DNA from: Picochlorum sp. SENEW3
Taxonomy: Eukaryota
Length of the DNA stretch: 64,000 nt
Assembly (NCBI GenBank): GCA_034226945.1
Contig: CP120455.1
Span: forward strand, 558,001-622,000
Reading direction: 5' to 3'
Part shown: one piece after another, positions 6,925-36,904 of the stretch
Numbering within the stretch: the stretch's first letter is position 1
Layout: every line of letters begins with the position of its first letter
Notes under the pieces: model-generated
What the model was told of the DNA's origin: nothing
The model's database searches: none
Seen by the model: only the letters and a program-made list of their open reading frames with translations
Position numbers and translations under genes: made by a program

Positions 6925-8065
6925 CCTCATGCATGATCATGATGGTGCATGTACGTGTGCTCGCAATAATTCGGGATCCCGAATTGATCCGTCCCGGTTT
7001 GAATTTGTTGCATGGTAGTTACGTCGCGTTTGTGTCTCGAATCGCCATAAACACTATTATATATTTAACAACTTTTCAATATGACTGATGCTATTTTGAT
7101 TGATGTTATTTTGGATAAAAGCATGAACATAAACCTTCATGACTTTATGCGATGGCAAGATTCTACCTCATACCTGCGCTCGAGTGTCGCGGATCAGCTT
7201 TTCAAACTTGGAAACAAGGTGGCATTCGTAGAAGCGCAAGCAATCGCCATGGTGAAGAAGGTCTGTGCTGAGTATGTGAAACCAAATCATGGGAACCTAA
7301 ACGCTGAGACCATAGTGCGGCTGGAGTCCGAGGAAGGATGGGACTGGACAGATGGTGGCAAGGAATATCTGGCCGACCGTCGTAAGTATTTGGCCCTCGG
7401 CACGTGGATTATTCTACAGAGACTCGAGTATGCATCGACAAATCATGGCCGCCTCTCCGCATGGCATATTCAAAAGCTCCAAAAGCTTCGTGGGTGGAGA
7501 TGGTCTGGTAATTTTAGACTTTCCGAGATTAATTTGATGGGCTCCTGGATAGAAAAGCAGCGTCGAGAGTACGCCAAACCCAACCACGGTCATCTATCCA
7601 AAGTAGACGTTCGGAAACTGGAATCATTTCCAGGATGGACATGGAGCGGTCCACTCGGCTGGAGAGAAGAAGCAACACGCACTCAGAAATGAGAGCACAG
7701 AGTTCTTCTTCTTTCAAAGAGTGAATTCAACTATGTCTGTCTGTATTTCGTCTTCATATGCGAGCATATGAGGATTATATATGTTTCAAAGAGAGAGATG
7801 TGCAATGAAGATTCCACCACTGTGGCGGTGAGATGATGAACCAAGAAGAGAACACCATGCATGCATGAACGCCGAAGAATACATCATGCAACTGAGGCAA
7901 TATACCTCAGCAGAGGATTTCATATCTTTTTACTCTATCCATGAATGCATGAAATTTGTAATGAAATGAACGACGTTAGTGTTACTGTCAACCAAATGTG
8001 AATCTGTGGCTGAATAGACATTCTCTCTCAATTCTGTGGCTGGGGGAACGCCGCTATGGACTCGC
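6925..8065 (+). repeat. Direct repeat copy 1 (~1.1 kb), left border of the NRPS island
   Basis: 6956-7053 is identical to 20811-20908 (98 bp). Similarity continues through the ORF and ~370 bp of 3' sequence. Confidence 0.9.
7081..7692 (+). CDS. Helicase-associated (HA) repeat protein, copy 1
   Basis: Three repeats of W-I-x-x-QR-x-EY...NHG-x-LS...KL...GW-x-W, resembling the HA (PF03457) motif. Intronless, with no helicase domain. Confidence 0.7.
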   Translation: MTDAILIDVILDKSMNINLHDFMRWQDSTSYLRSSVADQLFKLGNKVAFVEAQAIAMVKKVCAEYVKPNHGNLNAETIVRLESEEGWDWTDGGKEYLADRRKYLALGTWIILQRLEYASTNHGRLSAWHIQKLQKLRGWRWSGNFRLSEINLMGSWIEKQRREYAKPNHGHLSKVDVRKLESFPGWTWSGPLGWREEATRTQK

Positions 8066-8200
8066 ACAAATCTGGTGCTGCTAGTCGACGTGCATAGTGT
8101 ATCTTCATGCATCACAATCCCACTGATAAGGTTCTCTTATACGTCTGATGTCGAGAAACCCTGTTCTTTGAAAGGACTCTAGAGATGCTCTTTTCCACAG

Positions 8201-11200
8201 TTAGGGATCCTGCAGAAAGCACATATACCTCATGAATAAAGGGCATAAACTCCTCGATGAAGCAGAATGAATGCACAGAAATGTATAAGACGGACTTGTT
8301 AGAGATATGAGCTCGTCTGAATGCTTCAAACTCATCGTCTTTTCCAGAATTCTAAGATTTAGAATCTTCAATCTGGCATATGGCACTGCTGGAATACCTT
8401 TCCAGCAGTTCGACCTTTCGATCCTTTCGCCCTGCACGAATGACAAATCAAAATTCAAGATTTGGCTGTCACATTAAAGAAGATAGCATTAGGCTGGGGG
8501 CATCGTACCTTCAATACCAGGGATAAATGATCGACCTGAGAGTCCGCAGACATGCTAGAGCCAGGTAAAAGTGTTGTCCGTGATCCAACCCATGCTTGAT
8601 TTCCTATTTCTGTTTTGATGTGTTCAATTACCTGATTTTCAAGTGTATGTCCACTTATTACTGATTCTTGTCCAATGATGGATCTATCGCCGATTTGGAG
8701 GAGGTCCATTTCAACCCGACGGAATGAGAAATAGCAAACATTCTCACCGATTTTTGCCCCCAATAGGCGTGCCCACCAAACAAGCCAGACGGATCCCCCA
8801 AGTTGATTAATCAATGAACATTGAAGCATAACATTTGTCAAAAGAATCCAGGAAGTATAATGGTAGGAATAAAATGGATGGACTGATGTTGTATATTTCC
8901 CTGCAAGTATCCATTTCAGACAGAACATGATGAATGCCTGCACGAACTCCCCAATGACAAATACTGGAGGAAAAATGAGAAGATACCAATATATTGAAAC
9001 CCTTCCATCCGCAAGCATTTTTCTGAACGCCCACAAAAGCAAGAATATCGAGACAACAGAGCAATATGTAAGCACAGGTTGGCAGACAGTCAATGCCACC
9101 TGTGAAACCCAATATCTGCGAAGCAGATCTTTTGGAGGCGTCTCTTCTTCCTCTGGTATATTGTTTTCCCGTAAATGCTTTGCTGGAGCACCAACCCAGA
9201 CAGTTCCAGATTTGAACCTGCTATTGGGTGATGCATATGTCATATCACCAAGAATGGAGTAACTTTCAACTGTCACTCCTTTTTCTATGACAGCAGAGTT
9301 AGTAACAGCAACTTTGGAGCCCATTGTTACACCCCATTCGAGGAGCACATTTGCCGCTATTTCAGTGTCATCTCCAAGACATATCAAGTCTGGCTCAGCG
9401 CAGTGAGTGAGTCTAAGCATGGGTCTCTTCCCTATTTTTGCTCCTAGCAATCTTAAATACAACGACATCCATACCGTGCCACTTAAATGAACCCATAAAA
9501 CTTGTATAGGTGCATCGCTCATCAATCTCGTCATGGCCCAATGTCTAAAAACTGTCCATGATGTAGGGACCTTACTCCTGGGTGGCCTACCAAGGACCAG
9601 ATGTTTAAGCAGAAGAAATTGAAGGTAGAAAACGTGCGGCATAAGGTAGAAGACAAATATTGGCATTAAAAGCATGATTGAAAGCCAAAACGTTTGTCCT
9701 ATGGGTGCTCGAATCAAATCAATGAAATTTCCCTCAACCTTGACACCATTGTCATATTTTGGCATCAGGCCAGTGTATAAGCCATAAGCACAGGCACAAA
9801 CAGTGCACAGGCAGATGACATACATGCATGTCAAGACGATCAGAAAGGTACATTGGAGAATTTTCACCAATGGAGACCGCAGGATTTTGGCCTCAGCTGT
9901 CAGTTCAGTCTGGACATTTGCACCTGAGCCAGCAAGTGCTTCATCATATTGCTTTGCATTTGCCGTTGACATCGGAGGAACCGCTGTGTTTTCTGGGACC
10001 CGAGAACCCCCTGGGACGAAGCATCTTTTTCCCAAATAGCAACCTTTGCCAATTTGAATCGGCTGAATTACCAGTAAACCTCCAGCTTCTATAGTTGCAG
10101 GCTCAATGGCAGCACCAGAATCAATTATGACGCCATCTTCAATGACCACCAAATCAGGCTCGTATATTGTTGCCCAGCTCTTCATCGTCACATTTTTACC
10201 TATTCTTGCACCAAAAAGTCTTAAAACGGCCGAGTGAAAGCACGTTTCTTGTAAAGAATTCGACCAAAAGTGCACAACATCCATGACTCTTTTAGACATC
10301 ATCCATCTGCAGTAGTAGAAACTCCAAAGAGGGTATTTACCCGGCTTGATTCGACCCCACATGATAATTCTCAAAATAAGCCAGCAAACAATAAACAGCA
10401 ATGGAAGGTCTATCATTACAACGGCGATTGCAATTCCTATTGCAGGCCAGGGGCCGAACCATGCCCAGCATTGCAGTATGACTGTTATAGATGGTAGGAC
10501 TACAGCTACCTGAATGGTCGGCCTAATGAAGAAGGACACAAACTGCATAATAATTGGCAGTACAGAATTCGAATCATTTGAAGACCATGCAGAAACAGGC
10601 TTGATTTCAGCTGTAGACTTTCCATCTTCGATCCCAAGGGTTTTCATTAGTGCCGCCAGCGACCTTACAGTTGGTGCATCATAAAGAGACGTTGAAGGAA
10701 GCATATCTGCATCCATTTCTGTTCGAATTGAACTGATCAAAATACCGGCAAGTAGTGAGGATCCTCCTATTTCCCAGAAATCATCAGTGACCCCAACATC
10801 AGTCACGTCAAGAATGTTTTCAAAAAGTTTCTGTAGCTTCTCTTCCAAGGCACCCTCAGGAGCAACATATTCATTTTTACCTTTCGCTGCTTGAACATCA
10901 TCCCATTTGGGCGTTGGAAGTGCTTTTGTATTTGCTTTACCTGCATTTCAATATCTCAATATAATAACTAGGAATGCAGTGAGCGAGATTGGCAGACCAG
11001 CAAAATATCAAACTTGCCTGTGGGAGCGAGGGGAATTTCATCCAATGTGATCATGACAGCCGGGACCATGTATACCGGAAGTTCTGCACGCAAATGCTGC
11101 ATGCATTTGTCTACTTCTATCTCAGACTGCAGGTATTAGAATATGTGACGGCAAGTTGTACAATGTCTCGTTTAAATCGTTTCTCGGCATACCTTGGGGG

Positions 11201-14200
11201 AACAATAGACAACAATTTGGTCTTGACTTTTTGGATCTTTTTTCACAAGTGCAACTACCTGTTTCACACCATTGCATGCACTTACAACAGACTCAATCTC
11301 CCCTAGTTCGATTCTGTAACCTTTTATTTTCACCTGATTGTCAATACGGCCCAAGAATTCAATGGAGCCTCCAAATCTCCATCTGACTAAATCACCAGTT
11401 TTATAGCATCTACCACTGTGAAATGGGTTATCGACGAATTTTTCAGACGTCAATTCCTCTTTCTGAAGATATCCACGTCCAACACCATCGCCGCCAATGA
11501 TCAGTTCACCGGGTACACCAACTGGGACTGGCATCAAGAATTTGTCCACAATATATGACTTGTAGTTTGGCATTGGGCCTCCAATAAGAACAGATGTATC
11601 ACTGGGTAGCTGCACTTGTGCGTTGCTACCGACTGTTGTTTCAGAAGGTCCATACGCATTTATAAAGCAGGGCACAGCGGCTGCCCATTTCTGCATGAGT
11701 GCAAGGGAACATGCTTCCCCAGCAGTCACCACCACTTCCAGACTTGGGTACATGTGGGGGTCCATTGTTCCTAAAACAGATGGCACGGCCCCAAGATGGG
11801 TCACTTTATATCTTTTCAAAGCCTGAGTCCAGTCTGGTGGTGTCCACAATATCAATGTAGCCCCTACCGCCAGACAAGGTAAGATATCCCCTGCATGAAA
11901 GCAAACAAAATACTTGGTAATCTAAAGGCGAGCTTTGCATCTATGGCATTGCACCAAATGGAACGTGTTATATTATGTTCAAAGGCGATGCAGTAGAACA
12001 GAAAAAGGTGAAGAACAAATCGCCACTTGCCTTGGGCCCCATCAAATCCAATTTTGAAAAATTGGAACTGCCTGGCATCTTTATGGATCCTGTACGTGGC
12101 AGATAGAGCGTGAACCATATTTATCGCGTTACAATGCTCAATCATCACTCCTTTGGGCCTTCCAGTGGTTCCACTTGTAAAAATTACGTATGCCAAATCG
12201 TTTTGAGTGGGCTTCACATGGCTCAACAGACCTGTACACTTTTCCTCTTCCTCAAAAATCCTTTCGACATCGAGCAGGATGACCCCTTTAGATATATCTG
12301 AAGACAGATTCCTGAACATATACTTCGAGGAAATCAAGAAGTTTGTCTCGATGTCTTCCATGATGTACTTGATCCTTTGCTCAGGGTAAGTTGGATCGAT
12401 CGGGACAAAGGCAGCACCTGCTCTTAATACTGCTACCTCTGAAACGATAAACTCAATACTTCTGTCTAGCAGGATACCGGCTATTTTCCCTGGCCCGATG
12501 CCGTGTTTTATTAAGACATTAGCAAGCTTGCATGACAATCTATCCAGCTCTCCATACGTAATCTCTCGACCATCATGTGCAACAGCAGGGTGATCAGGTC
12601 TGGATCTAGCTGCATCAATGATGACTTCATCCAGGGTTTTTTCATAAGAAACACTGATATGGTTATCATTCCACACATTTAAAACCAAATTTTCTTCCTC
12701 TTTCGTCATTATAGGAGCAGCCTCTGCTTTGATTGCTGGATTTGAGCAAGTCTCAGAAAGGAGCACATTGAAATGGGATGCAAACCGCTCAATAGTGTCC
12801 TTGCTGAAAAGGTCTGTGCAATATTCAATGCGACATTTTAGCCTATTTTCATACTCTGTTATCTCAAGTGTGAGATCAAATTTTGATGCAGTACTAGATG
12901 TCACCTGGAATCTTGAAAACTCCATAGTATCACTCACCCTTGTGGGCTGAGACTCTGCACGTTCTTGCAGGACCATCATGACTTGGAAAATAGGTGGATG
13001 TGAAGGGTTGCTGTCCCCCAACTCCTTGGCAATATGTACAAAACTGATGCCTGAATTCGAGAAGAGATCCAAAATAGTTCCTTGTACCCTTCTGAGGACT
13101 TCAGTAAACGAAGGATTTCCATTCAGGTCGGCTTTCACTGGTAGGGGGTTGACAAAATATCCCAATGTCTCCTCCACACATTTATGGTGGCGACCAGAGG
13201 TTGGAGTTCCAACAGCAAAGCATTTTTGCCCCGAATATCTAGAAAGCTGTATCTGAAAAACAGACATCAGGGCCACAAAAAGAGTAACCCCGTTCTCTGA
13301 AGCCACCCTTCTTATCAAATCTACGACGTCTTCTGCAACTTCAAAAGCATACAGATCACCTGAAGTGGATTGAATGGATGGCCGGGGGAAATCAATTGGC
13401 AGCTGCAAGGTCTCTATATCGCTAAGCTCCTTCATCCAAAATTTCATTTGATTTTTCATCACTTCAGAATCCAGAAGCTTCCTCTGCCAAAATGCAAAAT
13501 CAGTGTAGGAAACTCTCTCTGCTCGAAAAGCAAAAGAAGATGGATTACGAAGTCCATACAAACAGGCCAAATACTTTTGTATGAGAAACATGGACCAGCC
13601 GTCCGTGGCTATATGATGCATTACCAAGAGAAGGATGTGGTGGTTTTCACCAAGCTTTAGCAGTGTTGCTCTCACTGGTGGACCCAATCCCAAGTCAAAG
13701 GGTTTAGAGGTCAGTTTGGCAATAATCTGATGCAGAACCTTTGTGTCATATGGATTGACAGAAATAGTCGTAACATCCATTCCTTGGTACTCATCTGAAC
13801 TCAGAACCACAGGCTGATACCTCCCAGATGTTAGACTGAAGTATGTCCGGAGGGTCTCAAAGTTCATCCCAAGGAATTTTAAGCAGTCCTTCAATTTCTC
13901 GGTATCCAATGGCCCTTTCATATCAATACCAAAAGGAACATTATACGAAGAAGATTTAGGATCCAAGTGATACAGAGCAAGCATCTGTTCCTGTCCAAAA
14001 GACAAGACAAACTCCTGTCCTTGAAACGACTTTGCTACCTCTACTGGAGATTCATACTGTAATTGATCACCATTGATAACCCATGCTGCCAGATTTCGAA
14101 TTGTTTTGTTCCTTAAAATATCCGCGACATTGATCATCTTGTTTTTAAACTCTTCTTGCATAGCATACGCTAATCGAGCAGCTTTGATTGAGTTCACCCC

Positions 14201-16033
14201 AAATTCAAGTATGTCATCTGTTACACCAATGTTGGTCAGACCCAGCTCTTTCTCCCAGATTCGTGTGATTGACTCTTCCAAAGGGCCTTGGGCAGGCACC
14301 AAACTCTTCTTCAAGATTTTTCTTGCATCCAATGTAGTTGCATCGATAATCGGCCTCACCCCACTAGACACTAGTGATGAAAAAATAGACATACGGATTA
14401 TTTTATTGGTCGATGACCTGGGGAGCACTGACACATCATCAATGACATAAATTGAAGCCGGGACTTTGAAATCAGGAAGCATTTTTTTGCAGTACGATAG
14501 GACTGAATATGCCAAATTAGAATAATCATCGCCGTTACGCTTGGGCACTAGCACAAGTCCAACATCTTGTCCAAGCCATTGATCTGGTATTGAAAAGCAG
14601 TACGACTCTGCAGCACATTGACTCATATAGACAGTGTCTTCGATTTCAGTTGGTGAGATTTTCTCTCCTCCTTTATTGATAATTTCCTTTACTCGTCCAG
14701 TAAGTGTTAGATATCCTGCTTGGTCCAGATAGCCGAGGTCACCTGTTCTAAACCATCCATTGATGAAGGCATTTTTGTTTACTCCGTGGCCATCATCCAG
14801 GTAGCCGTCAAATACACTACCACCTTTGAGACAAATCTCACCGATCTCCCCAGTTTCTTTCTCCTTAAAGTCGTTTCCGCTATCAAGATCTAATATACAA
14901 ATTGAAATGGATCCTACGGGGATTCCCACAGAACCTGGGACTTTCTTTTGTGGCGTGAGGGGATTGGAGCACACAACAGATGCTGCTTCTGACATTGCAT
15001 AAGAGTTGATCACTCTAATACCCATTTTACTCTCGATTTCCAGTTCAATAGTTGAGCTCAAAGGTGCTGCAGCACAGCGAAGAAATCGTAACTTGCTTCC
15101 TTTGGGCATTCGAGACTGCTTGGACATATCAATACTCCATCTATCCAAAAGTGCAATGTAAAATGCTGGCACTCCTGTAAACCAAGTGACCCCCCTGCTG
15201 ACTACTTGGTCCCAAAATACCGATGAATCAAAAGATACTGGAAATACCAATTTGCCCCCTGAGCACAGGGTTGTCATCAAAGCAGGGCCAAGACCGCCAA
15301 TGTGAAAAAGAGGCATGCAGTGTAGATGGGCATCCTCCTGTCCAAGATGATAAAATTTGGCGAATGCCGTGACAGCGTCTGAAAATGCCCTGTGAGTAAT
15401 AGGAACTCGTTTAGGCTTGCTGGTGGTCCCACTGGTCAGAAGAAGAATTGCAACATCGTCCCCTGACGAAGTCCCCTGATCCAGGAACTGCTCCATTTCC
15501 TCTGGAAGTGCAGTCGTCAGTGCTGAGTATTTCCTGGTCAAACCACGCCTATTTACCTGGGACGTGCTTCTAATTAGGCTTTTGGATTTATAATTTCTAT
15601 TACCTTCTGTGCACAGAGTGATGGGCAGTATAGGATCTCCCTTCAAGATCAATCCAGCCCGTATCACAGGAATGCCCAGCCTTTTGGCTGCCTCAACTCC
15701 ATTATGCACATTGAGGGAACTTTCATCGGGTACAATCAGACAAGCCGCGTTGTAGTCATTCAGAGTATGCAGAAAACTCTCTTCAGGTATGGCATTGTTG
15801 ATTGGGGCGTATACATGACCCATCACCACGCCTAAAAATACGACAACGTCCTCCACGTGGTGCCCTGGGGCAGTGGCTACAACCTGTCCAGAACTTATTC
15901 CATATTCAAGCAACTGCTGATGGATAGAGCGAGCTAGATGGTTCAACTCCATATATGATAACGATATTTCGCCATTATCAGTTTCAATTGCCACTCTTGG
16001 CGAACACGTTATCAGGCTAGCTACAGAGGTCAT
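8201..16033 (-). CDS. Multimodular NRPS (~2490 aa): acyl-CoA-ligase-like A1-T1-C-A2-T2 plus Pls/PosA-type terminus (3x TM + left-handed beta-helix)
   Basis: A1: TSGTTSKPK, PLFHIGGL, YAMSEA, GWFRTGDLG, GGEKISP. T1: GVNS. C: HHIATDGWS. A2: TSGTTGRPKG, NAYGPSET, YKTGD, QVKIKGYRIELGEIE. T2: GGSS. Terminus: three LxGAKIG/hexapeptide blocks ending WxGxPA. Introns at 11891-12030 (GC-AG), 11127-11192, 10941-11017 (GC-AG) and 8432-8508 all restore the frame. Confidence 0.9.
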
Positions 16034-16389
16034 ATTGTAGCAAAAATCACCTTCCCAATCGAACTAGCAAAACAGTCGTAGTCCGAACGCCACCAGTGGA
16101 TCGAATATGATATATTGACGGGGACTTAAGACGTGATCTAAATCCAATGTCTTCGTATACAAACGTGATTGCTCTTTGGGAGCGAGATTTCCTGCAGGAA
16201 ACCAGCGAACGCGCTTGTGGATAAAATTCACCGTGCAAACAAAAATGGCCATTTGTGCACCATATCAGGCATTATAACACAGAAAGATTACCTTTTCGAC
16301 TATTATTATATTATGAATTCTAATGCATCGTCTTAGACACATGACGTAAATTTGCAAACCACGCCACGACTGATGACGTTATGCATCGA

Positions 16390-16411: not shown

Positions 16412-16619
16412 CACGTGCACGAGCCATCCGTTTACAGGATGGCCTGCGAGTATGATTCATGGACAAAAATGCATAGCACTGACTCGAAATGTGACATGCT
16501 CTATTTCATATCTAATATCAATTCTTTAGTCAAAGGCGTTAACTGGAGTTGTCCAGACTCGGTGCAACCTTTGAGGTTTCCACTGCGGAAGTGATACGTT
16601 CTCAGCGTTTGCGTTCCAT

Positions 16620-18455
16620 ATGAAGATGGGGCCTTCGTCAAAGTATGCGTCTTTTGCTTTGATTTCTTTGTTATTTGCAGCCGTCTTTCCCATTGGAGGA
16701 GAGACCCAGGCAGCCTCTGTCTCGAGGCCGACTGCAGGTCTCTGGCCAAGGGATATTTCTCCTCGTTTGAATATCCTTACCATGCTTGAGCCGGAGCATA
16801 AGGTTGAGTTTGATTTGCTGGTGCAAAGCTTGACTGCCATACAAAACATGTCTCCAGAAGATCCCAGGTCATTCTTCGCCATTGCTGGCATTCATGGCAT
16901 GCCATTTGAGGAGTACAACTCATCAACAGTGCCCGGATTTCAATGGACACCAGACATGCCTCCACCTCAGTGGGGGGGATACTGCCACCACGGCGATGTT
17001 CTGTTCCCAACATGGCACAGAGCATACATGTTACAGATTGAAAATTCCATTCTGGAACAGGCAACTTTGATCGCTAGGACATATCAAGATGAAAACGTGA
17101 AGAGGGACTACTTGGAAGCAGCAAATCGGCTTCGATTCCCATTCTGGGATTGGGCAGATGATGTGACAGCAACAGAGGGTATACCTGATGTATTTACAAA
17201 CAAGACGCTAACAGTGAATCTGCCACCATATAATCTGCCCACGCCAGTAGCCAACCCGATGCGTGCCTTCTCGTTTACAAAGAGTGTTGGGACACCTTTT
17301 GGAGTTGGTGATCAATACAATCCTCAAAATGGAGCCTTATACACAGTGCCGCCTGGCCATATTTATATGGCTCCAGGATATTCTACAGTAAGGCAGCCTG
17401 TATTTGGATATGCAACAAATGATACAATGTTGAACGAATCAGTGAAGATTTCTGCGGCAACCACCTTCATCCCAGGCCTGTACGATCTGTTCCAGGTTCC
17501 AGATTTCAGGGTGTTCTCGAACCATTATGCCACTTCGCCAATCAAAGGAAATCAAAATGCAACCCAATTTTTATACTACGCGTCTTTGGAGGGATTACAT
17601 GACAGTATCCACAGGGCTGTGGGTGGATTGGGAGGCCACATGAGATTCAACACCATGGCTGGATTTGACCCAATTTTCTTTTTCCATCATTCTAACGTCG
17701 ACAGAATTTTTGCTTTATGGCAGCGTATGTACCCAGATCAATGGATAAAACCATCAACTGCTATTCAAGGGACATTTACTGTGCCATCAGGGTCCACTGT
17801 TGATGAGAATACAGCATTGATGCCATTTTACGCCCCATCAGGCAGTTACTATGTCTCAACTGATCTAAGAGATGTTACACAACTAGGTTATACCTACCCA
17901 GAACTTATGAATGCTGATTCGAAGGGGATTGGCTCTGTTGAATTTCGCAAGGAAATATTGAACCAGTATCGACCAAATAAGGAAGACGCGTTCACCACTC
18001 GCTGGTATCTGGGATTGAGGGATGTTACAGCAAAACAGCTTCCTGGTGCATTTAGCATCCACGTTTTCATAAATCCAGATGAAACTCCGACAATAGACAC
18101 TTCATTGCAGAACAATCCAAATTATTGCGGATCTGCTGATTTCAGTTCCGGCAAAACTACTGCAGTCCAGAAGTTTGATGGTCAGGTATCTCTCACCAAG
18201 TGTTTCGTCAACCTATATTTGACAAAGTATCCAGTTATTGGCAACCCAAGCACAGCAAACATCACAGATGCTCTTGCTACTTTGGCAGGCTACCCATTGC
18301 TTTATTCAGATCTCTACTATGTGATTGAAGGCTCTGATGGATCTGACTTTTCTGAGTACGTCACCATGTCTGACAATACCATATTTTATGTTTACGAGCG
18401 AGGAGGTGAGACATATAGAAATTCAGTTCCCAAAAGGCCAAACGTTATTGGCTAG
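16620..18455 (+). CDS. Secreted tyrosinase (type-3 copper oxidase) with C-terminal shielding-type domain
   Basis: N-terminal signal peptide. CuA: AGIHGMP, YCHHG, FPTWHRAY; also PFWDW. CuB: LHDSIH, FDPIFFFHHSNVDR. LGYTY motif. Intronless. Confidence 0.92.
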   Translation: MKMGPSSKYASFALISLLFAAVFPIGGETQAASVSRPTAGLWPRDISPRLNILTMLEPEHKVEFDLLVQSLTAIQNMSPEDPRSFFAIAGIHGMPFEEYNSSTVPGFQWTPDMPPPQWGGYCHHGDVLFPTWHRAYMLQIENSILEQATLIARTYQDENVKRDYLEAANRLRFPFWDWADDVTATEGIPDVFTNKTLTVNLPPYNLPTPVANPMRAFSFTKSVGTPFGVGDQYNPQNGALYTVPPGHIYMAPGYSTVRQPVFGYATNDTMLNESVKISAATTFIPGLYDLFQVPDFRVFSNHYATSPIKGNQNATQFLYYASLEGLHDSIHRAVGGLGGHMRFNTMAGFDPIFFFHHSNVDRIFALWQRMYPDQWIKPSTAIQGTFTVPSGSTVDENTALMPFYAPSGSYYVSTDLRDVTQLGYTYPELMNADSKGIGSVEFRKEILNQYRPNKEDAFTTRWYLGLRDVTAKQLPGAFSIHVFINPDETPTIDTSLQNNPNYCGSADFSSGKTTAVQKFDGQVSLTKCFVNLYLTKYPVIGNPSTANITDALATLAGYPLLYSDLYYVIEGSDGSDFSEYVTMSDNTIFYVYERGGETYRNSVPKRPNVIG

Positions 18456-20794: not shown

Positions 20795-21910
20795 CCTCAT
20801 GCAAGATGCATGTGCTCGCAATAATTCGGGATCCCGAATTGATCCGTCCCGGTTTGAATTTGTTGCATGGTAGTTACGTCGCGTTTGTGTCTCGAATCGC
20901 CATAAACAGTTTTATATACAGTATATATTAAATATATTGCAACTTTTCAATATGACTGATGATATTTTGGATAAACGCGTACCAATATTCCATCGTAATA
21001 CTGCGCTCCGGCACGGTTCTACCCCATACCTGATCTCGAGCGTCACGGATCCGCTTCTCCAACTCGAAAACGAGATGGAATTGCAAGAAGCGAAATCAAG
21101 CAACCTGGCGAAGATCGCCTGTGCAGAGTATGCGAAACCAAATCATGGGAATCTAAGCGCTGAGATCATAGCGTGGCTGGAGTCCAAGGAAGGATGGGAC
21201 TGGACAGATGGTTGCAAGGAGTATCTCGCCATCCGTCGCATGGACCTGTCCTTCGGTATGTGGATTAATCGACAAATGCTCGAGTATGCATCGACAAATC
21301 ATGGCCGCCTCTCCACATGGCATATTCAAAAGCTCCAAAAGTTTCGTGGGTGGAAATGGTCTGGTAATTTTGATACTGACGACATGGAGCCGCTGGCCTC
21401 CTGGATAGAGAAGCAGCGTCGAGAGTACGCAAAACCCAACCACGGTCATCTATCCAAAGTAGAGGTTCGGAAACTGGAATCATTTCCAGGATGGACGTGG
21501 TCCGGTCCACTCGGCTGGAGAGAAGAAGCAACGTGCACTCGGAAATGAGATTACAGAGTCCTTCTCTTCTTTCGAGGAGTGACATCAAATGTGTCTGCAT
21601 CCCGATTGCTTTTGTAAACGAGAAAATAAAGAGTACATATTCAAGAATTACAGATGCGCCGAAAGGAATCAATGTCATGATGACGAACCAAGAGAACACC
21701 ATGGCATCCAACATGCCTGCATGAATGCCAAAGAGAACATCATGCAACTGAGACAATATACCTCAGCAGAGGATATCATATCTTTTTACTCTATCGATGA
21801 ATGCATGAAATTTGTAATGAAATGAAAGATGTTAATGTAAATCAGATGTGAAACTGTGACTTAGAGACTCCTCTCAATTCTGTTACTAAGTGAACGGCTT
21901 GATAGACTTG
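20795..21910 (+). repeat. Direct repeat copy 2, right border of the NRPS island
   Basis: Collinear with 6925-8065. Shares the AATTCGGGATCCCGAATT palindrome and the 3' block ATGAATGCATGAAATTTGTAATGAAATGAA. Confidence 0.9.
20952..21548 (+). CDS. Helicase-associated (HA) repeat protein, copy 2
   Basis: Paralog of 7081-7692 with a near-identical C-terminus (EYAKPNHGHLSKVxVRKLESFPGWTWSGPLGWREEAT). Confidence 0.7.
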   Translation: MTDDILDKRVPIFHRNTALRHGSTPYLISSVTDPLLQLENEMELQEAKSSNLAKIACAEYAKPNHGNLSAEIIAWLESKEGWDWTDGCKEYLAIRRMDLSFGMWINRQMLEYASTNHGRLSTWHIQKLQKFRGWKWSGNFDTDDMEPLASWIEKQRREYAKPNHGHLSKVEVRKLESFPGWTWSGPLGWREEATCTRK

Positions 21911-30719: not shown

Positions 30720-31254
30720 ATCGTTATCAGACCCTTATATACACGTCAATGGTCTCAATCGAGCGCTCTTGGAATGTTTTCGCTCATGGTTTCAAAAACC
30801 AATTCCTCTCCACATGTCTATCCATCTTCCAAAACAATACACGAATGTCCAAATACAGTCCTATAAAAATCAAATATTACATGTAGATGTACAGATGGAG
30901 CGTGTCGATGCCTAGGCCAAATTCAAACGCACGCCTGTCGATCGATATCCGACTGGCCCATTAAATCAACCATCTGATGGTACGCATAGTTTCTCAAGAG
31001 TATGGCATCCGCATAGTAATAGTCTTGCATGGATTCAGAGCATGATGAAAAGAATTCTATTTTTAAAACACAACTGCATATAGGTTATTCTCCTTGCTGA
31101 TGCCCTACAGGCTGCACAAGTGTCATGCCAGCGTGGAACGCAATTGAATTTCACAAGAGCAGGGAATGGCATCTATATGCAAAGGAAAACGATTGAAAGT
31201 ATCTATAGAATTTTACAAAAGAGGTGGACGATAGATTGGAGGTGTAGAGAGGCG

Positions 31255-34200
31255 ATGATGGGGACACGACGTGTTGGTGGGCACCCTGTGGGTGGTGGTC
31301 GAGTAGGGGCTGTGGATGCTCTGTGTATCAATCCACGGGTCAAGTCGATGATTGGAAGGGAGCGTATATATACCGGTGGTGGACGGGGTTTTCAGGCGTG
31401 GCGTCGAATGATGTCTGTGAGTAGTGATGTTGAATGGGTTGATGAGCAGGCAGAAAGATACGGGGTTGATGATGAGAGAGCACCCCCGCAGTATTCCAGC
31501 CAGACGCACGTGTCGGTGGAGGGGAAGATTATGAAAGTTCAATATAGATCAAGTGAGAGTGGGTATTCCGTTCTCAAGGTGGGAATAGATCCAGAGAGGG
31601 CAACAGATATTCCCAATCTTGCACTTGAGGGGTCTGGATCAAAGTTTCGGTATGGTCAGAAGAAGAGGCGGCGAGATTTTTCGATTACTGTTGTTGGTAT
31701 TTTGCCAGTGTTGCACGTTGGACAAGGGGTGACTGTGCAGGGAAGTTGGACAACACATCCTACGTATGGGATGCAGTTGAAGGCACAGCAGGTTGAGACA
31801 AGGACACCGAGTGGACATGAGGACCTTGTGTCGTTCTTGTCTGGGGGTGCGATTCATGGAGTTGGACCATCGACGGCGGTTCGGATGGTGGAGGTGTGGG
31901 GAACGGATATTCTTGATGTGCTTGATTCTTCAGATGCTGTTGTGAAATTGCAACAGTGTGATGGCATTGGGAAGAATAAAGCTGTTGCGATCAAGTCTGC
32001 GTGGGATTGTGGGAGAGATGCTCGGGATGGAGCAAAGTTTTTATGTGAAGGTGGTATCCCGGCTGGTCCAGCGCAGAGAGTGGCTGAATTGTTTGGAGGG
32101 GATACGCAAAGCAAGGTTGATGCTGATCCGTACTCAACATTGAGTCGTTTTGGGATTTCTTTGGATGCTATTGAAGCGTTTGCAGTCAAGACGGGTGTCA
32201 TGTCAGACTTTGTGTCTCGTATTTCATTGGTTATAACACGGTGTTTGATGGCATCGTCAAATCGAGATGGACATGCGTATTTGCCATGGGGGGGACTGGA
32301 AGGCCTTGCGTTGACAAGATTAGAGACCTTGTCGCATCGATTTGGAGGTACGGAGTATATATCATTTGGATGGAGTATTATACAACAGGAATAAGAAGAC
32401 CGAGTTCCATTTTTATTGTTCATGCAGGTGATTTTAGAACAGTGACCCCTGATCAGTTGAAACGAGTTGCCTGGCATATGTGTCACAAGGGAACATTAAT
32501 TTGTGAGACGGGGGACTTGTTTCATGGATCGAATTCAAATGTTGGGAGTATTTCTGTTCCTTCTGTATCTGTTGATGAAATGCGAGGGATCCTGCATGGG
32601 GTGACAAAGAGGCAAATGGAATCATTGCTGGATACGCATGGTGAGAATTTGGTTGGGATTCTTTCCGGTGATGAGGAAGAGGCAGTCGACTTGCTGAAGA
32701 AATGCCCTGGCATTGGGCCCAAAACTGTGGAAAAAATTTTAAATGCATGGAAAGAAAATAGGCCTGACACTCAGGGTAGAGCATTGTTGCATGGTGTATC
32801 AATCATTGAAGATTTGGAAATGGCAAACATAGATTCCCCATGTGAATGGACAGACTCTGTGCGGTGTTACTTACCGCAATTTCATAAAGCAGAAACAACT
32901 ATTGTAGATTGTATCACTGGAAAATCTTCAATCTCACAGGATATTTCACCTCCTAGATCTCAAAAGATCAAGCAATGGATTGACATGAATCAAGAGACAA
33001 CAAACGTTGTTCTATCCAAGGGGCAGCGTGCTGCAATCGAATTGGCTTCAGATGCACCGATTCTTGTCATAACAGGGGGTCCTGGATGTGGTAAAACTAC
33101 AGTATTGCAGTATATTGTCAAATTATGGTGTGCTCAAGGAAAGATGGTGCATATTTGTGCTCCAACTGGTCGAGCAGCTCAGCGAATTGGTGCAATTCAG
33201 AACGTGGAACCGAGTACAATACATCGATTATTAAAGTATAGACCAAAGAACTCGTCAGAAGCACAGTCAGGAATGTCCTTGGAATCTTTGGATGAAGATG
33301 AGATAGACTGGGGAGAAATGGACTGCTTTGAGCATGGTTTGACAAACAAACTTGAGTCCGATGCCGTTTTAGTTGATGAAGCGTCAATGCTCAGTCTTCC
33401 TCTTGCGGCTGCATTGATGCAATCTCTAAAAACCGAGACCCAGCTTATTCTTGTCGGGGATGTTGACCAACTTCCCCCTGTAGGCCCTGGTGGTATTCTA
33501 GATGCCGTAATATCATCTGGTGTTGTTCCTGTTGTCGATCTTCGTGAAATTTTCAGGCAAGAAACTACATCGAACATTGTTACATCTGCTTTATCTGTGC
33601 GAAGTGGAAACTATCCACCAGTGCCCGAGTTACATCTAGATGGAGGGAATGCTTTCGATCAGATTGTGCATCAGAAGGGATCATTTATTGTCAGAACTGG
33701 TGACAATATCATCGAGTCGGTTGAGCGCATTGTCGAAACCATGATCCAAGAACCTGGAGCGGATATTAGTGACACACAGATCATTAGTCCAATGAGAAAA
33801 GGTCCCGTTGGCGTTGGGGTATTGAATCCAAGGATCCAGGCTATTGTAAATCCTCCCGAGCTTGGAAAACTAGAAGTCTCTAGAGGGGATGTGATCCTAC
33901 GAATGGGAGACCGAGTATTGCAGCTACACAACGACTATGACAAAGATGTCTACAATGGGGACCAGGGAACCATTGTGGATGTGGATCCAGTGCTCAAAAA
34001 GGTATGGGTGCAATTTTCCAAAGGTTTTGGTGGAGACAGCCAATTGCTTGAATATTCAGGCATGGAGCTGTCTCATCTGGATTTGGCATATGCGGTGACT
34101 GTTCATAAAGCCCAAGGTGGTGAAGCAAAGAATGTTGTTATGGCACTGTCACATCATCATGGCAGGCTTCTGACACGCCCTTTGCTATACACTGGCATCA

Positions 34201-34751
34201 CACGAGCACGGGAGACCTTGGCCATGGTGGTTGGATCGACTTTGATAGACCCGGTCTCGGTTGCTATCAACACAGTGGGTATGGAGACACGCTTGTCATC
34301 TTTGGTTGAACGGCTAGTTTCCAAAGCAACAGCGCTGCATATTCCCCACCATGAGGTTGCAAGCTTTTTTGATGAGCAGGAAGAATGTGGCAATGCCAAC
34401 TGTGGTGTCCAAGAAGTTCTGAATGAATTACAAGTACGGAAGAACACAGCAGACAAAATAATCAAAATATTCGAGTCTCAGAATCTTCCTTGCGTGGATG
34501 TAGCGATGCTTCAAGCCAACATTCAATTGGTGTCCGACATTTGTACATCTGGACAAGCCTCCCCTGACCAAGTGCTCGAATCTGTACCTTTTCTTATGGT
34601 CGCTTCCCAAGACTATCTTAGCAAGAGTCTAGAATTTAGCACGAAAATACATGATGGCATCATGTCCTCATCTCCAGGACAGGATGATGACAGCAGCAGT
34701 CTTGTCATGCAGCTTGCACACCTCAGACATGCTTGGCAGGACAATCAATAA
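31255..34751 (+). CDS. RecD2-like SF1B ATP-dependent DNA helicase, probably organelle-targeted
   Basis: N-terminal OB fold (HPTYGMQ) and HhH motifs; TGGPGCGKTT, APTGRAA, VDEASM, GDVDQLPPVGPG, IFRQ, AYAVTVHKAQG, YTGITRAR. Intron 32348-32427. Start approximate. Confidence 0.9.
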
Positions 34752-34761
34752 TCTTATTCGA

Positions 34762-36612
34762 CTATATCCACTCTTCTCTGAGAATCATTGTGCTGAAAAT
34801 CTGACATATAGATTCCATTGTAAGCATCTCATACAAAGATTCGAAATCTGCTTTCACACCGGCAACCGACATGCACTCCAACTCCTGTGCCCATTGCTCT
34901 GCTCCAAATGCTTTCAGGACGCCCAGCAAATTTTTCGACAGCGAATAATCCCGTTTCGTCATTTCTTGCAACCCACCTTCGACACTTAATCCCTTGATGG
35001 TTGACATGCGCAGGCCTAACCATTGCAAATCTGGCAATGTAAACTCCTTTGATTCTGGGGAATTTTCAGATCCAAACTTGTACTGAGCCAAGATATGCAA
35101 TCCATGAGGATTCCAATCCACCAGTCCCACCATAGGAATTGAAGGATATGTATCATGCAGCTTTTTTAAAAAGGCACGCGTCGCGATATCTGGATACCCT
35201 TTGGCAGTGACGAGCAAACAGTCCTTGAGCATTGGTGAAGCTTGAACAAATCGCTGAAACATGGTTTCCTTCTCAATAACCAGAATACACGACGCACGAC
35301 ACCTCATAGTCGACTTCCAAATCAATGGTATGCATCCTGGTATAGAGTATCCTCTTTCGAGCAGAGAGCAGTCCACAGAAGGCATGAGTGACCCTGTAAA
35401 CTCCATCACTAATGGCCCATACACCAGTCCCTTTGAGCAACAATCTATACCCAGACTGTACCTTGGAACCTGTAATACACGGCACGCATTCCTCAACACA
35501 TCTGCATGTTGAGTTGCCTTTAGCAAAGGATCTCGAGCCTTGCTGGCGTAATATAGCTCCCTTTGGGTACTCCTGTGACCAGTACACAGCAACCTTTCAT
35601 GCGCCGTGTTCAGCATGGATACAAAGAGTGCAAAGCGATCCAAAGACGATACATTCCCAGGATCAATTCCAAAAAGAACTTTCTGCCTCTGTGATACATC
35701 AGCAGGAGAAGAGAAAAAAACAGGAAGCTGCCCCATGGACAGGGTCGACAAGATGAATTCGACACAGCATTCAATCCTCTCAATCACTTCTGATGCATTC
35801 AAACCCTATAAGAACAACATAATCATATGATGATGATTGCATATATGTGTATATATCAGCGCATACGAGTACCTAATAATAAAACCCACACGCACCATGT
35901 TCAGCATCCCAGACCCTACTTTGACCCCATCATGGTCATGCCTCATTTTATCATGCTCAATACCACCAACGGGCTGACACACGGTCAACTCTTCCTCCAA
36001 CCCATATTCAAACACACCATCATCATAGTCTTCTTCTTCTTCTTCTCTTTCTCTATGCATATCTCGCTGCTGTGGAGTATGAGTAGCATCCCCAGAATCC
36101 GCACAAGAGGGTCGTTTCCTACACTTCCTTCCATGAACCATTCCAACATCCCCGACACATTCCGCCATCAAACCACTACTACGAGGCCCCCTCTCACTCC
36201 ACGTTGGAATCACTGCATAATACTCTTGAATACCGCAAGACCCAGTATCATGCTCTGACACCCCACTGGTGTCCTGGCATAAGACATCTTCACGTGGCCT
36301 CTTTGACGCCACAAATTCATCCTTGAGCTCCTTCAGCGTCTTCTCCTCCGCAGTATCGGCACAAGAGACAAGAATCCTCTCATAATACCGCTGCGGAGCA
36401 GCAATATTCCATATCTTTGCACAACACGCCAGAGGACTCTGAAACACCTCTCCACAAGAAGACAACTCATCACACCATCGTATCCGTCCATCCTCCAATA
36501 CATCCAAAACATACTCTCTACTTGGATCATTTGTACTCGACAGTCGCATGACACCCTCTCCAACCGGCACCACCCCCGCCCGAACCATATCCCGAAACAC
36601 ACACCCAACCAT
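34762..36612 (-). CDS. SPO11-2: Meiotic SPO11-2 with a spliced N-terminal RAMA-like domain and acidic linker (~586 aa)
   Basis: Catalytic TQRELYY; IEKETMFQR, TAKGYPDIATR, and VDWNPHGLHIL (SPO11-2-type). The core ORF begins at a TTG and joins in frame to the upstream exon through intron 35806-35895. Confidence 0.85.
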
Positions 36613-36659
36613 TGATTGATTACTACGCCAAGTGCGTTTTACTTGCTCTTGTCTAATAA

Positions 36660-36904
36660 TATTATTATTATATGTATTAAATAATGTATAATTGTATATG
36701 CGAGTATACAGCAAATGCATGAAGACATGCGTGGATGACCATATCGAGGCAGAGCCACAAACATCCACTTGCATGAGGACCTGCATGGCATTGGCTGGCG
36801 AGCAACTCATGCTGATGAATACAACCAGACACCACGGATGGCATAATGATGGGATTTTATGATCAGCATAGAGGAGATTGAGTGATTATTAATCCCGTCA
36901 CCAT
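36660..36904 (+). repeat. Direct repeat A, copy 1 (~245 bp)
   Basis: A ~98-bp core (36770-36868) is near-identical to 39411-39510; the flanks are more diverged. Confidence 0.9.

Follow-up and report, generated by a model that had tools for sequence, protein, structure and literature searches.

A Picochlorum gene predicted to encode a two-module nonribosomal peptide synthetase with an acyl-activating starter and a Pls-type membrane terminus

The window analysed here is a stretch of 64,000 nucleotides (nt) from the trebouxiophyte green alga Picochlorum sp. SENEW3 (contig CP120455.1, positions 558,001 to 622,000 of the forward strand), and all coordinates given below are counted from its first letter. 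Its minus strand carries a gene for a nonribosomal peptide synthetase (NRPS) in which an acyl-activating adenylation domain (A1), a carrier domain (T1), a condensation domain (C), an amino-acid adenylation domain (A2) and a second carrier domain (T2) are followed by a membrane terminus resembling that of epsilon-poly-L-lysine synthetase (Pls) and of PosA. Four long minus-strand frames underlie the gene (11864-16063, 11172-11921, 8455-10947 and 8201-8473, listed from stop to stop). GY-AG junctions link these frames, and the five-exon join proposed in the initial annotation yields 7473 nt, or 2490 residues, with one terminal stop. The gene is indeed intact and its frames do join, but its end lies elsewhere: the last 31 residues of the five-exon product disagree with the C-terminus of a Picochlorum soloecismus protein in EukProt (P0278; 2493 residues, named merely 'amino acid adenylation domain protein'), which agrees with a frame further downstream. 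A fifth intron (8295-8210), previously overlooked, was added for this reason, giving six exons, 2491 residues and a stop ending at 8112. Residues 1-2491 of the six-exon product align to residues 1-2493 of P0278 with 86.6% identity and two gaps. The parts of the gene are as follows.

8112..16033, minus strand: whole coding sequence, six exons, 2491 residues, ATG at 16033-16031, stop ending at 8112, aligned end to end with P0278
12031..16033, minus strand: exon 1, residues 1-1334 plus one base, with A1, T1, C and the N-terminal part of A2
11891..12030, minus strand: intron 1, 140 nt, GC-AG, donor GCAAGT, phase 1, splitting the FDGAQ/G motif of A2
11193..11890, minus strand: exon 2, middle of A2 with code positions 278-331, TIGR01733 match at 1.1e-65
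11127..11192, minus strand: intron 2, 66 nt, GT-AG, at the same position in the related locus L002
11018..11126, minus strand: exon 3, C-terminal subdomain of A2 as far as PLAPTG, in agreement with P0278
10941..11017, minus strand: intron 3, 77 nt, GC-AG, donor GCAAGT, with a GT donor at the same site in L002
8509..10940, minus strand: exon 4, A10 lysine, T2 and the bulk of the membrane terminus
8432..8508, minus strand: intron 4, 77 nt, GT-AG, an intron also found in the related locus L001
8296..8431, minus strand: exon 5, closing stretch of the third beta-helix plus some of the tail
8210..8295, minus strand: intron 5, 86 nt, GT-AG, read through in the initial annotation to a stop at 8201
8112..8209, minus strand: exon 6, last 32 residues and the stop codon, fitting the C-termini of P0278 and L001

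Splicing at these junctions restores the motifs of the adenylation domain exactly (FDGAQ/GDILPCLAVGATLIL, CSPK/SEIEVD and PLAPTG/KANTKALP). Two related loci, L001 and L002, were recovered by a metagenome scan with a C-terminal alignment; a scan with A1 as the query returned no relative. L002 is 72% identical over residues 3-2414, with 345 nt of locus sequence upstream of the gene, and its unconserved insertions sit exactly at junctions 1, 2 and 3 with GT...AG ends, the site of intron 1 being occupied by a 78-nt intron with a GTAAGT donor. L001 is 89% identical (77% over residues 2461-2491, encoded by exon 6); in it intron 4 is present, and exon 6 is conserved in a frame that differs from that of exon 5. 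In P0283, a closer relative that had been read through by a gene caller, GKFDIF is reached via the same GC donor of intron 3. GC donors (GCAAGT) occur in two of the five introns, 1 and 3, and their counterparts in L002 are GTAAGT and GTATGG.

Comparison with other DNA runs gave a similar picture. A genomic contig of run X12, approximately 98% identical, differs by 171 letters and two deletions (2 and 7 nt), both located in intron 3. These two (10956 and 10959) and a 1-nt deletion at 8496 in intron 4, found in one X10 contig, are the three indels listed against three other runs, so that all three are intronic; introns make up 446 of the gene's 7922 nt. Among 40 listed of the 216 differences to other runs, 36 are coding, 19 of them synonymous and 17 non-synonymous; as a partial list, this tally is weak support for constraint. 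Read together as sequence comparisons, these data constitute good evidence for the junctions.

The locus might still not be one algal gene, representing instead bacterial contamination, a recent inactive insertion or a set of separate genes. Green algae have few NRPS genes, the nearest match of the full architecture (A-T-C-A-T-terminus) lies in a bacterial metagenome-assembled genome, and the model of a single gene was built from DNA alone. We nevertheless find this explanation hardly credible, as five introns of spliceosomal type break conserved NRPS motifs which splicing restores exactly, two relatives have introns at the same positions and the independent annotation of P0278 yields the same protein. 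Furthermore, the G+C content of the window varies little (0.42-0.47 in 2-kb steps), the genes are densely packed, those neighbouring the NRPS are ordinary eukaryotic ones (SSRP1, Spo11, Ofd1, WDR3 and a pentatricopeptide repeat protein), and near-identical DNA occurs in at least 20 runs from eight studies.

The exon translations were searched against Pfam and NCBIfam. The domain order described in the initial annotation was found, namely A1-T1-C-A2-T2 followed by three units of two transmembrane helices and a beta-helix, and each of the families expected there (AMP-binding twice, PP-binding twice, Condensation and TIGR02353) was matched. AMP-binding was detected in two stretches (E 4.7e-109), with a FadD7-type acyl-CoA ligase as the top NCBIfam match (1e-108); the amino-acid adenylation model TIGR01733 is split over exons 1 and 2 (1.4e-89 and 1.1e-65). 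PP-binding was matched at 1.9e-10 (T1) and 1.7e-05 (T2), Condensation at 6.9e-87, TIGR02353 in three stretches (4.5e-67, 226.9 bits) and Hexapep at 7.6e-11. The domains are placed as follows.

14399..15994, minus strand: A1, residues 14-545, acyl-activating, probably of the oxalyl-CoA-synthetase lineage with a remodelled pocket
14078..14272, minus strand: T1 carrier, residues 588-652, Ser615 at 14189-14191 in FGVNS
12692..14017, minus strand: C domain, residues 673-1114, HHIATDG (residues 806-812) at 13598-13618
10936..12586, minus strand: A2, residues 1150-1605, amino-acid adenylation, interrupted by introns 1-3, code DGGGVAAVGK
10648..10839, minus strand: T2 carrier, residues 1638-1701, Ser1665 at 10756-10758 in GGSS
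8354..10593, minus strand: Pls/PosA-type terminus, residues 1720-2440, broken by intron 4, three units each of two long helices and a left-handed beta-helix
10345..10554, minus strand: hydrophobic helix pair 1, residues 1733-1802, from hydropathy and the structural model
9607..9873, minus strand: hydrophobic helix pair 2, residues 1960-2048, from hydropathy and the structural model
8902..9099, minus strand: hydrophobic helix pair 3, residues 2218-2283, from hydropathy and the structural model
8647..8649, minus strand: His2368 in SGHTLEN of the third beta-helix, invariant in 39 of 39 aligned termini

The features of a modular NRPS are all present. Both adenylation domains have intact P-loops, (N/Y)A(Y/M)..E, TGD, GR..(D/E) and the A10 lysine; the two carrier serines and the HHxxxDG motif reported in the initial annotation are Ser615, Ser1665 and HHIATDG, the last of which is also kept in P0278 and L002. 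Relatives at 87% and 72% identity share the domain order, core motifs, carrier serines, HHxxxDG and the features of the terminus. The best matches of the C domain in the PDB are 5u89, Txo2, Txo1 and TycC (1e-61 to 1e-57), and the surfactin starter C domains match it far more weakly (about 1e-21); judged by its sequence, it is a C domain of the ordinary elongation type.

The first 570 residues have their best PDB matches in 6qjz, the Lathyrus enzyme LsOCS (1.1e-84), and 5ie0, the Arabidopsis enzyme AAE3 (5.7e-75), followed by 8aff, an 'Oxalate--CoA ligase' (4.4e-67) which we take to be yeast Pcs60. The likeness of the A1 motifs to AAE3/Pcs60 seen in the initial annotation is thereby borne out, all three top matches being oxalyl-CoA synthetases. 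Malonyl-CoA synthetases come next (1.6e-47), and the NCBIfam malonyl-CoA synthase model matches A1 at 3.3e-93. With AAE3, LsOCS and Pcs60 the domain has in common the P-loop, PLFH, YAM(T/S)EA, GGEKISP and catalytic lysine motifs. It differs from these enzymes in an insertion of ~50 residues ahead of the P-loop and in being fused in frame to T1 and C instead of standing free, an arrangement in which the coenzyme A (CoA) that they use would have no role. Stand-alone homologues of A1, mostly bacterial and some of them plant, are 33-36% identical, and some are named oxalate-CoA ligase by their source; no donor of A1 can be named, the stand-alone homologues all lying at about this level.

One variant of the function proposed below, differing from it in the substrate of A1 only, is suggested by these matches and source names: the same assembly line, with an A1 that still activates oxalate or malonate, would make an amino acid bearing an N-oxalyl or N-malonyl group, the algal equivalent of the plant oxalyl-amino acids. 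The pocket argues otherwise. According to the available portion of PMC8905533, Ser289 and His319 of the Arabidopsis enzyme (Ser296 and His326 of the Lathyrus one) bind oxalate and are a conserved feature of the oxalyl-CoA synthetases only. When A1 is aligned to 6qjz with HMMER, both are seen to be swapped in it, Ser296 for Ala and His326 for Ser, and two more pocket-shaping residues, His223 and Cys295, are now Gly and Ala. Because the oxalate-specific Ser and His are replaced, A1 is unlikely to use oxalate. The replacements recur in the relatives at 87% and 72%, in line with a new specificity having become settled (PLFHIGGL, RFLRCAAAPL and YAMSEAASV are preserved in P0278 and L002), and identity to the stand-alone homologues is low. 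A1 thus probably descends from the oxalyl-CoA-synthetase lineage with its pocket opened and oxalate activation disfavoured, and we consider an N-oxalyl or N-malonyl product unlikely.

The specificity of A2 was approached by a comparison of adenylation domains. Out of 420 proteins fetched overall, 141 of those longer than 600 residues had any match to the terminus, and 104 of these were used, in which the BLASTP match to the terminus starts at residue 600 or later and spans more than 550 residues. With the window's own, 105 A domains were aligned with MAFFT (faster settings), and the ten Stachelhaus columns were anchored on the window's own motifs. The PosA code DMEHNGTVSK, as published in the available part of PMC10522769, was reproduced in two rows, which supports the mapping of the A2 columns; many other rows gave codes of the DAESIGTVVK type.

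The code of A2 reads DGGGVAAVGK. The Asp binding the alpha-amino group, which the initial annotation had placed in FDGAQ, is retained as position 1, position 3 is Gly, and the pocket holds no acidic residue. The identical code is found in P0278 and is unique to Picochlorum among the 105 domains, and the motifs that bear it (FDGAQG, THLGAVPS, VVVTAGE and NAYGPSETTVG) are the same in L002. All cationic homo-polyamino-acid synthetases share an Asp at position 1 and a Glu at position 3, by which the two amines of the diamino acid are held, and mutation of either residue in PosA left no detectable activity (PMC10522769, available part). A2 possesses the Asp but not the Glu of this pair. Because its pocket is lined with Gly, Ala and Val only and has no acidic residue, A2 probably takes a bulky substrate other than a diamino acid; the code suggests a domain that binds an alpha-amino acid with a bulky side chain and does not fix a second amine. 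The V-A-A-V-x-K end of the code may resemble that of aromatic (Phe/Tyr) codes, a likeness that is not used as evidence here.

Among the 104 other terminus-bearing proteins, position 3 is Glu in 58 and Asp in two. The non-acidic codes include 20 of the HVRY/HIRY type and one partly gapped row of the same group, five of a G.W type (Cymbomonas, Pycnococcus/Pseudoscourfieldia, Polykrikos, Diplonema and one unnamed), 13 of DPLNVGEICK from one metagenomic cluster, and a few single codes. The proteins with HVRYCASPIK or HVRYAASPIK codes (P0034-P0085 etc., P0044/P0047/P0070/P0100) have ~1540-1980 residues and a Pls-type terminus, and their named members are fungal, several basidiomycete ones also listing RING-finger families. 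They lack Asp at position 1 and, by their codes, are unlikely to activate alpha-amino acids.

The terminus was examined by sequence, hydropathy and structure prediction. Hydrophobic windows of 19 residues are confined to it and fall into three pairs. An AlphaFold model of residues 1720-2414, computed with a 39-row alignment, has a predicted local distance difference test score (pLDDT) of 87.0 and a predicted template modelling score (pTM) of 0.88, and in it a unit of two long helices, short helices and a left-handed beta-helix occurs three times. The three-unit build is drawn from the three stretches matched by TIGR02353, the hydropathy and this model; a BLASTP self-comparison for an internal repeat gave the identity match alone. 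For PosA, the part of PMC10522769 available describes a modelled terminus of six helices and three left-handed beta-helix segments of ~180 residues, and the predicted build here, six helices in three pairs with three beta-helices, corresponds to it. The nearest Atlas clusters of the terminus are named Pls/PosA family (0.97). Neither sequence search nor Foldseek found a whole-domain relative in the PDB (best query TM-score, TMq, 0.14), the Foldseek matches being only single beta-helix acyltransferases and gamma-carbonic anhydrases. The initial annotation's assignment to TIGR02353/Pls thus holds for the E-value and for the Pls-like modelled build, but the match lies below the family cut-off, as do those of P0229 (279.5 bits) and P0033 (196.5 bits), and in the trees described below the terminus does not join the clade formed by the Glu-coded enzymes.

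That the terminus might be a mere membrane anchor, its catalysis lost, with release by spontaneous or trans hydrolysis or with the whole enzyme a relic that has no product, is compatible with its score under the cut-off, its long branch and three units too diverged for BLAST to see the repeat. We judge this improbable in view of the conservation. In the 39-row alignment, eight invariant and 20 nearly invariant columns, His2368 included, are occupied in the Picochlorum protein. Between the Picochlorum lineages the terminus is 85-89% identical, about as the whole protein is (86.6%); the model is confident, and the core motifs of A1, T1, C, A2 and T2 are all intact. Trimeric hexapeptide acyltransferases use a histidine at their subunit interfaces, and by this analogy we infer His2368 to be a candidate catalytic base.

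Two trees of the terminus were calculated: one by FastTree with 95 rows, from which ten near-identical members of the P0008 cluster had been dropped, and one by IQ-TREE (quick, mixture model) with 45 rows, of which 44 had been selected manually so as to reduce the set. The latter is split, with a Shimodaira-Hasegawa-like approximate likelihood-ratio test (SH-aLRT) support of 100, into 25 rows, comprising 24 Asp/Glu-coded proteins and P0113, and 20 rows that include the Picochlorum pair and all lack Glu at position 3. The FastTree tree likewise places Picochlorum outside the Glu-coded clade (support 100). Some Pls-type termini carry extra C-terminal fusions: in P0175 the fused domain is an FMN-dependent dehydrogenase, in P0166 a 4'-phosphopantetheinyl transferase and in P0181 a carboxylesterase.

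These trees bear on the alternative, raised in the initial annotation, of an N-acylated homopoly(amino acid), in which the terminus would polymerise the A2 amino acid in the manner of Pls, and A1-T1-C would cap the chain or each monomer. Homology to the Pls/PosA terminus, the same predicted six-helix, three-beta-helix build and the retained invariant His all speak for it, as does the fact that every characterised Pls/PosA member is a polymerase. Yet Pls/PosA polymerisation needs a side-chain amine, for which Asp 1 and Glu 3 are universal, and PosA mutated at this Glu showed no detectable activity (PMC10522769, in the part available); in A2 position 3 is Gly and the pocket is free of acidic residues, the terminus lies outside the clade of all Glu-coded enzymes, and a cap that the C domain puts on the alpha nitrogen would in addition prevent the chain from growing through alpha linkages. 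We therefore give this alternative little credence.

The Picochlorum protein has in common with Pls and PosA an A-T unit followed by a homologous membrane terminus, but a full A-T-C module stands ahead of that unit, the gene is eukaryotic and has introns, the A2 code differs from the DAESIGTVVK type and from DMEHNGTVSK by having no Glu at position 3, and the terminus does not group with the Glu-coded ones. Characterised Pls/PosA enzymes are single A-T-terminus units, as the initial annotation had it and as PMC10522769 states in the part available; the survey network there was kept to 1100-1800 residues, with no mention of algae in that part, and longer forms were consequently not surveyed. A fungal epsilon-poly-L-lysine synthetase is on record in the available part of PMC7179176.

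Longer relatives do exist. Pfam detects a Condensation match ahead of the A-T-terminus unit in eight of 11 long relatives, one of these matches being weak. The closest in order is P0229 (MFH0784194.1, 2443 residues, from a Pseudomonadota metagenome-assembled genome), which has the same A-T-C-A-T-terminus arrangement but whose adenylation domains are both of the amino-acid type (TIGR01733), making it a dipeptide line and not an acyl-starter line. The metagenomic P0008 cluster (3837-4817 residues) and P0111, a transcript of the dinoflagellate Biecheleria cincta (3717 residues), are multi-module proteins with a Pls-type terminus, and in the proteins of 3717 and 3837 residues three A domains apiece are accompanied by four C matches in one and three in the other. 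P0229, P0008 and P0111 resemble the Picochlorum protein in having Condensation modules before the last A-T-terminus, no Glu at position 3 and a place outside the Glu-coded clade; they differ in that their identity to the exon-4 piece (T2 and terminus) is ~27% and their termini are on a separate branch.

C-A-T-terminus proteins were found in Phalansterium, Diplonema and the green alga Apatococcus lobatus (P0033), and Pls-type termini also in Cymbomonas tetramitiformis (P0154) and in Pycnococcus/Pseudoscourfieldia (P0014 cluster). The chlorophyte termini of Apatococcus, Cymbomonas and the P0014 cluster likewise lie outside the Glu-coded clade, and their codes are not those of diamino acids (DVLCMGCINK, GVWCLALMTK and GVWWLCVITK); unlike the Picochlorum protein they show no acyl-activating first module, and they have other codes, other branches and 22-27% terminus identity.

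On the side of the starter, a search with A1-T1 for longer proteins returned bacterial NRPSs with a similar acyl-ligase starter at ~31% identity. Three of these (P0301-P0303) have the same initiation logic and the AMP-binding, PP-binding and Condensation families, but all three list a thioesterase family (PF00975); in the 120 listed rows of this search, which are cluster representatives only, no Hexapep family was found, and the Picochlorum full-length protein itself sits in a cluster represented by a 292-residue fragment. Both C and T2 have among their PDB matches the pyoverdine synthetase PvdL, an enzyme with an acyl ligase at its start.

Among the proteins compared, then, an acyl starter combined with a Pls-type terminus was seen only in the Picochlorum lineage, that is in the window, P0278, L001/L002 and metagenome fragments. 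The initial annotation had not recognised this architecture from green algae; that is right for the acyl-starter form, but an orthologue is annotated in P. soloecismus and Pls-type termini occur in other green algae. No paper on the gene or its architecture was found, nor does it figure in the available parts of papers on Picochlorum nonribosomal peptides, although supplementary tables of algal clusters may list it. The literature search also gave no paper on TIGR02353, and poly-L-lysine synthetase combined with microalga yielded unrelated work only.

Taking the locus as a whole, we read it as one nuclear gene for a 2491-residue, two-module NRPS which is anchored in the membrane by its own C-terminal domain, and we think it somewhat more probable than the reverse that this enzyme makes an N-acyl amino acid that is released or transferred at the membrane. 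A1 would adenylate a carboxylic acid, probably larger than oxalate, and load it onto T1 and not onto CoA. A2 would adenylate an alpha-amino acid, probably bulky and not a diamino acid, and load it onto T2. The C domain would then join the two into an N-acyl-aminoacyl-S-T2. The Pls-type terminus, standing in place of a thioesterase, would transfer the acyl-aminoacyl group from T2 either to water or to an amine or hydroxyl serving as acceptor, and as it would act at or across the membrane, release would be membrane-coupled. On these sequence features the most likely product is a small N-acylated amino acid or a conjugate thereof, and not a cationic homopolymer linked by isopeptide bonds. The acyl-capped amino acid made at the membrane, one of the two products named in the initial annotation, is thus the one favoured by the domain order and motifs. 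A precedent for the terminus as an off-loading domain is provided by the eight of 11 long relatives with Condensation upstream.

Several points weigh against this proposal. To our knowledge, diamino-acid polymerisation is the only reaction ever shown for a Pls-type terminus, and release or transfer by it would be an extrapolation. The 226.9 bits of the terminus compare with a TIGR02353 cut-off of 423.1, for an exon-4 translation from which the last ~25 residues of the domain are absent. Its branch is long (1.15-1.31 changes per column), and FastTree flags a long-branch join with P0175, whose position as nearest neighbour is unreliable. The substrates suggested for A1 and A2 are read from pocket residues alone, and the very open pocket of A2 could admit a diamino acid without a carboxylate to fix it. 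The junctions are placed by sequence comparison, every compared run being DNA; X10 and X11, two runs presumed to be RNA, behaved as DNA and showed no joints. Finally, within the window no phosphopantetheinyl transferase, transporter or tailoring gene was found except for a neighbouring tyrosinase.

A broader proposal, which we offer tentatively and regard as possible but rather doubtful, is that the Pls-type terminus is more than a homopolymerase, serving as a general membrane-embedded, export-coupled off-loading domain across a broad and largely eukaryotic part of its family, and that in Picochlorum it delivers an N-acyl amino acid, bulky and perhaps aromatic, to an acceptor in or beyond the membrane. 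This part of the family would comprise green algae, dinoflagellates, diplonemids, fungi and some multi-module bacterial lines, whose A domains are unable to hold a diamino acid. All that we know of on Pls-type termini comes from single-module bacterial and fungal polymerisers of diamino acids. The present gene sets such a terminus behind a full acyl-starter module, and its last A domain breaks the diamino-acid rule in three diverged lineages. It thereby offers a concrete test case of whether Pls-type termini can release or transfer ordinary NRPS products at the membrane, which, if true, would be a new mode of chain release for NRPS engineering. It is also among the few intact multi-domain NRPS genes in a small, fast-growing green alga, which could carry an N-acyl amino-acid metabolite. 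The gene is already publicly annotated in P. soloecismus under a generic name, though uncharacterised. What makes it interesting is its bearing on Pls-type termini.

A tyrosinase gene (16575-18455, plus strand, first Met at 16620; Pfam Tyrosinase 5.4e-41) is arranged head to head with that of the NRPS, ~0.55 kb from the latter's start codon, and the N-terminus of its product is hydrophobic and resembles a signal peptide. The tyrosinase may act as a partner by oxidising an aromatic product, or its position may be due to chance, the genome being compact; should the off-loading proposal be true, the tyrosinase could oxidise or cross-link the product beyond the membrane.

Elsewhere in the window, a bacterial-type helicase resembling RecD2/YrrC, an unusual gene for a green alga, is encoded at 31084-34751 (plus strand) in two overlapping frames (31084-32394 and 32175-34751), which suggests an intron or a frameshift. 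Weak 'Helicase associated' (HA) matches were seen at 7069-7692 (plus strand, 1.7e-06) and 20874-21548 (plus strand, 9.5e-05), the latter below the gathering score. A weak match to RAMA (restriction enzyme adenine methylase associated), at 6.5e-06 and below the cut-off, lies at 35806-36885 (minus strand), adjoining Spo11.

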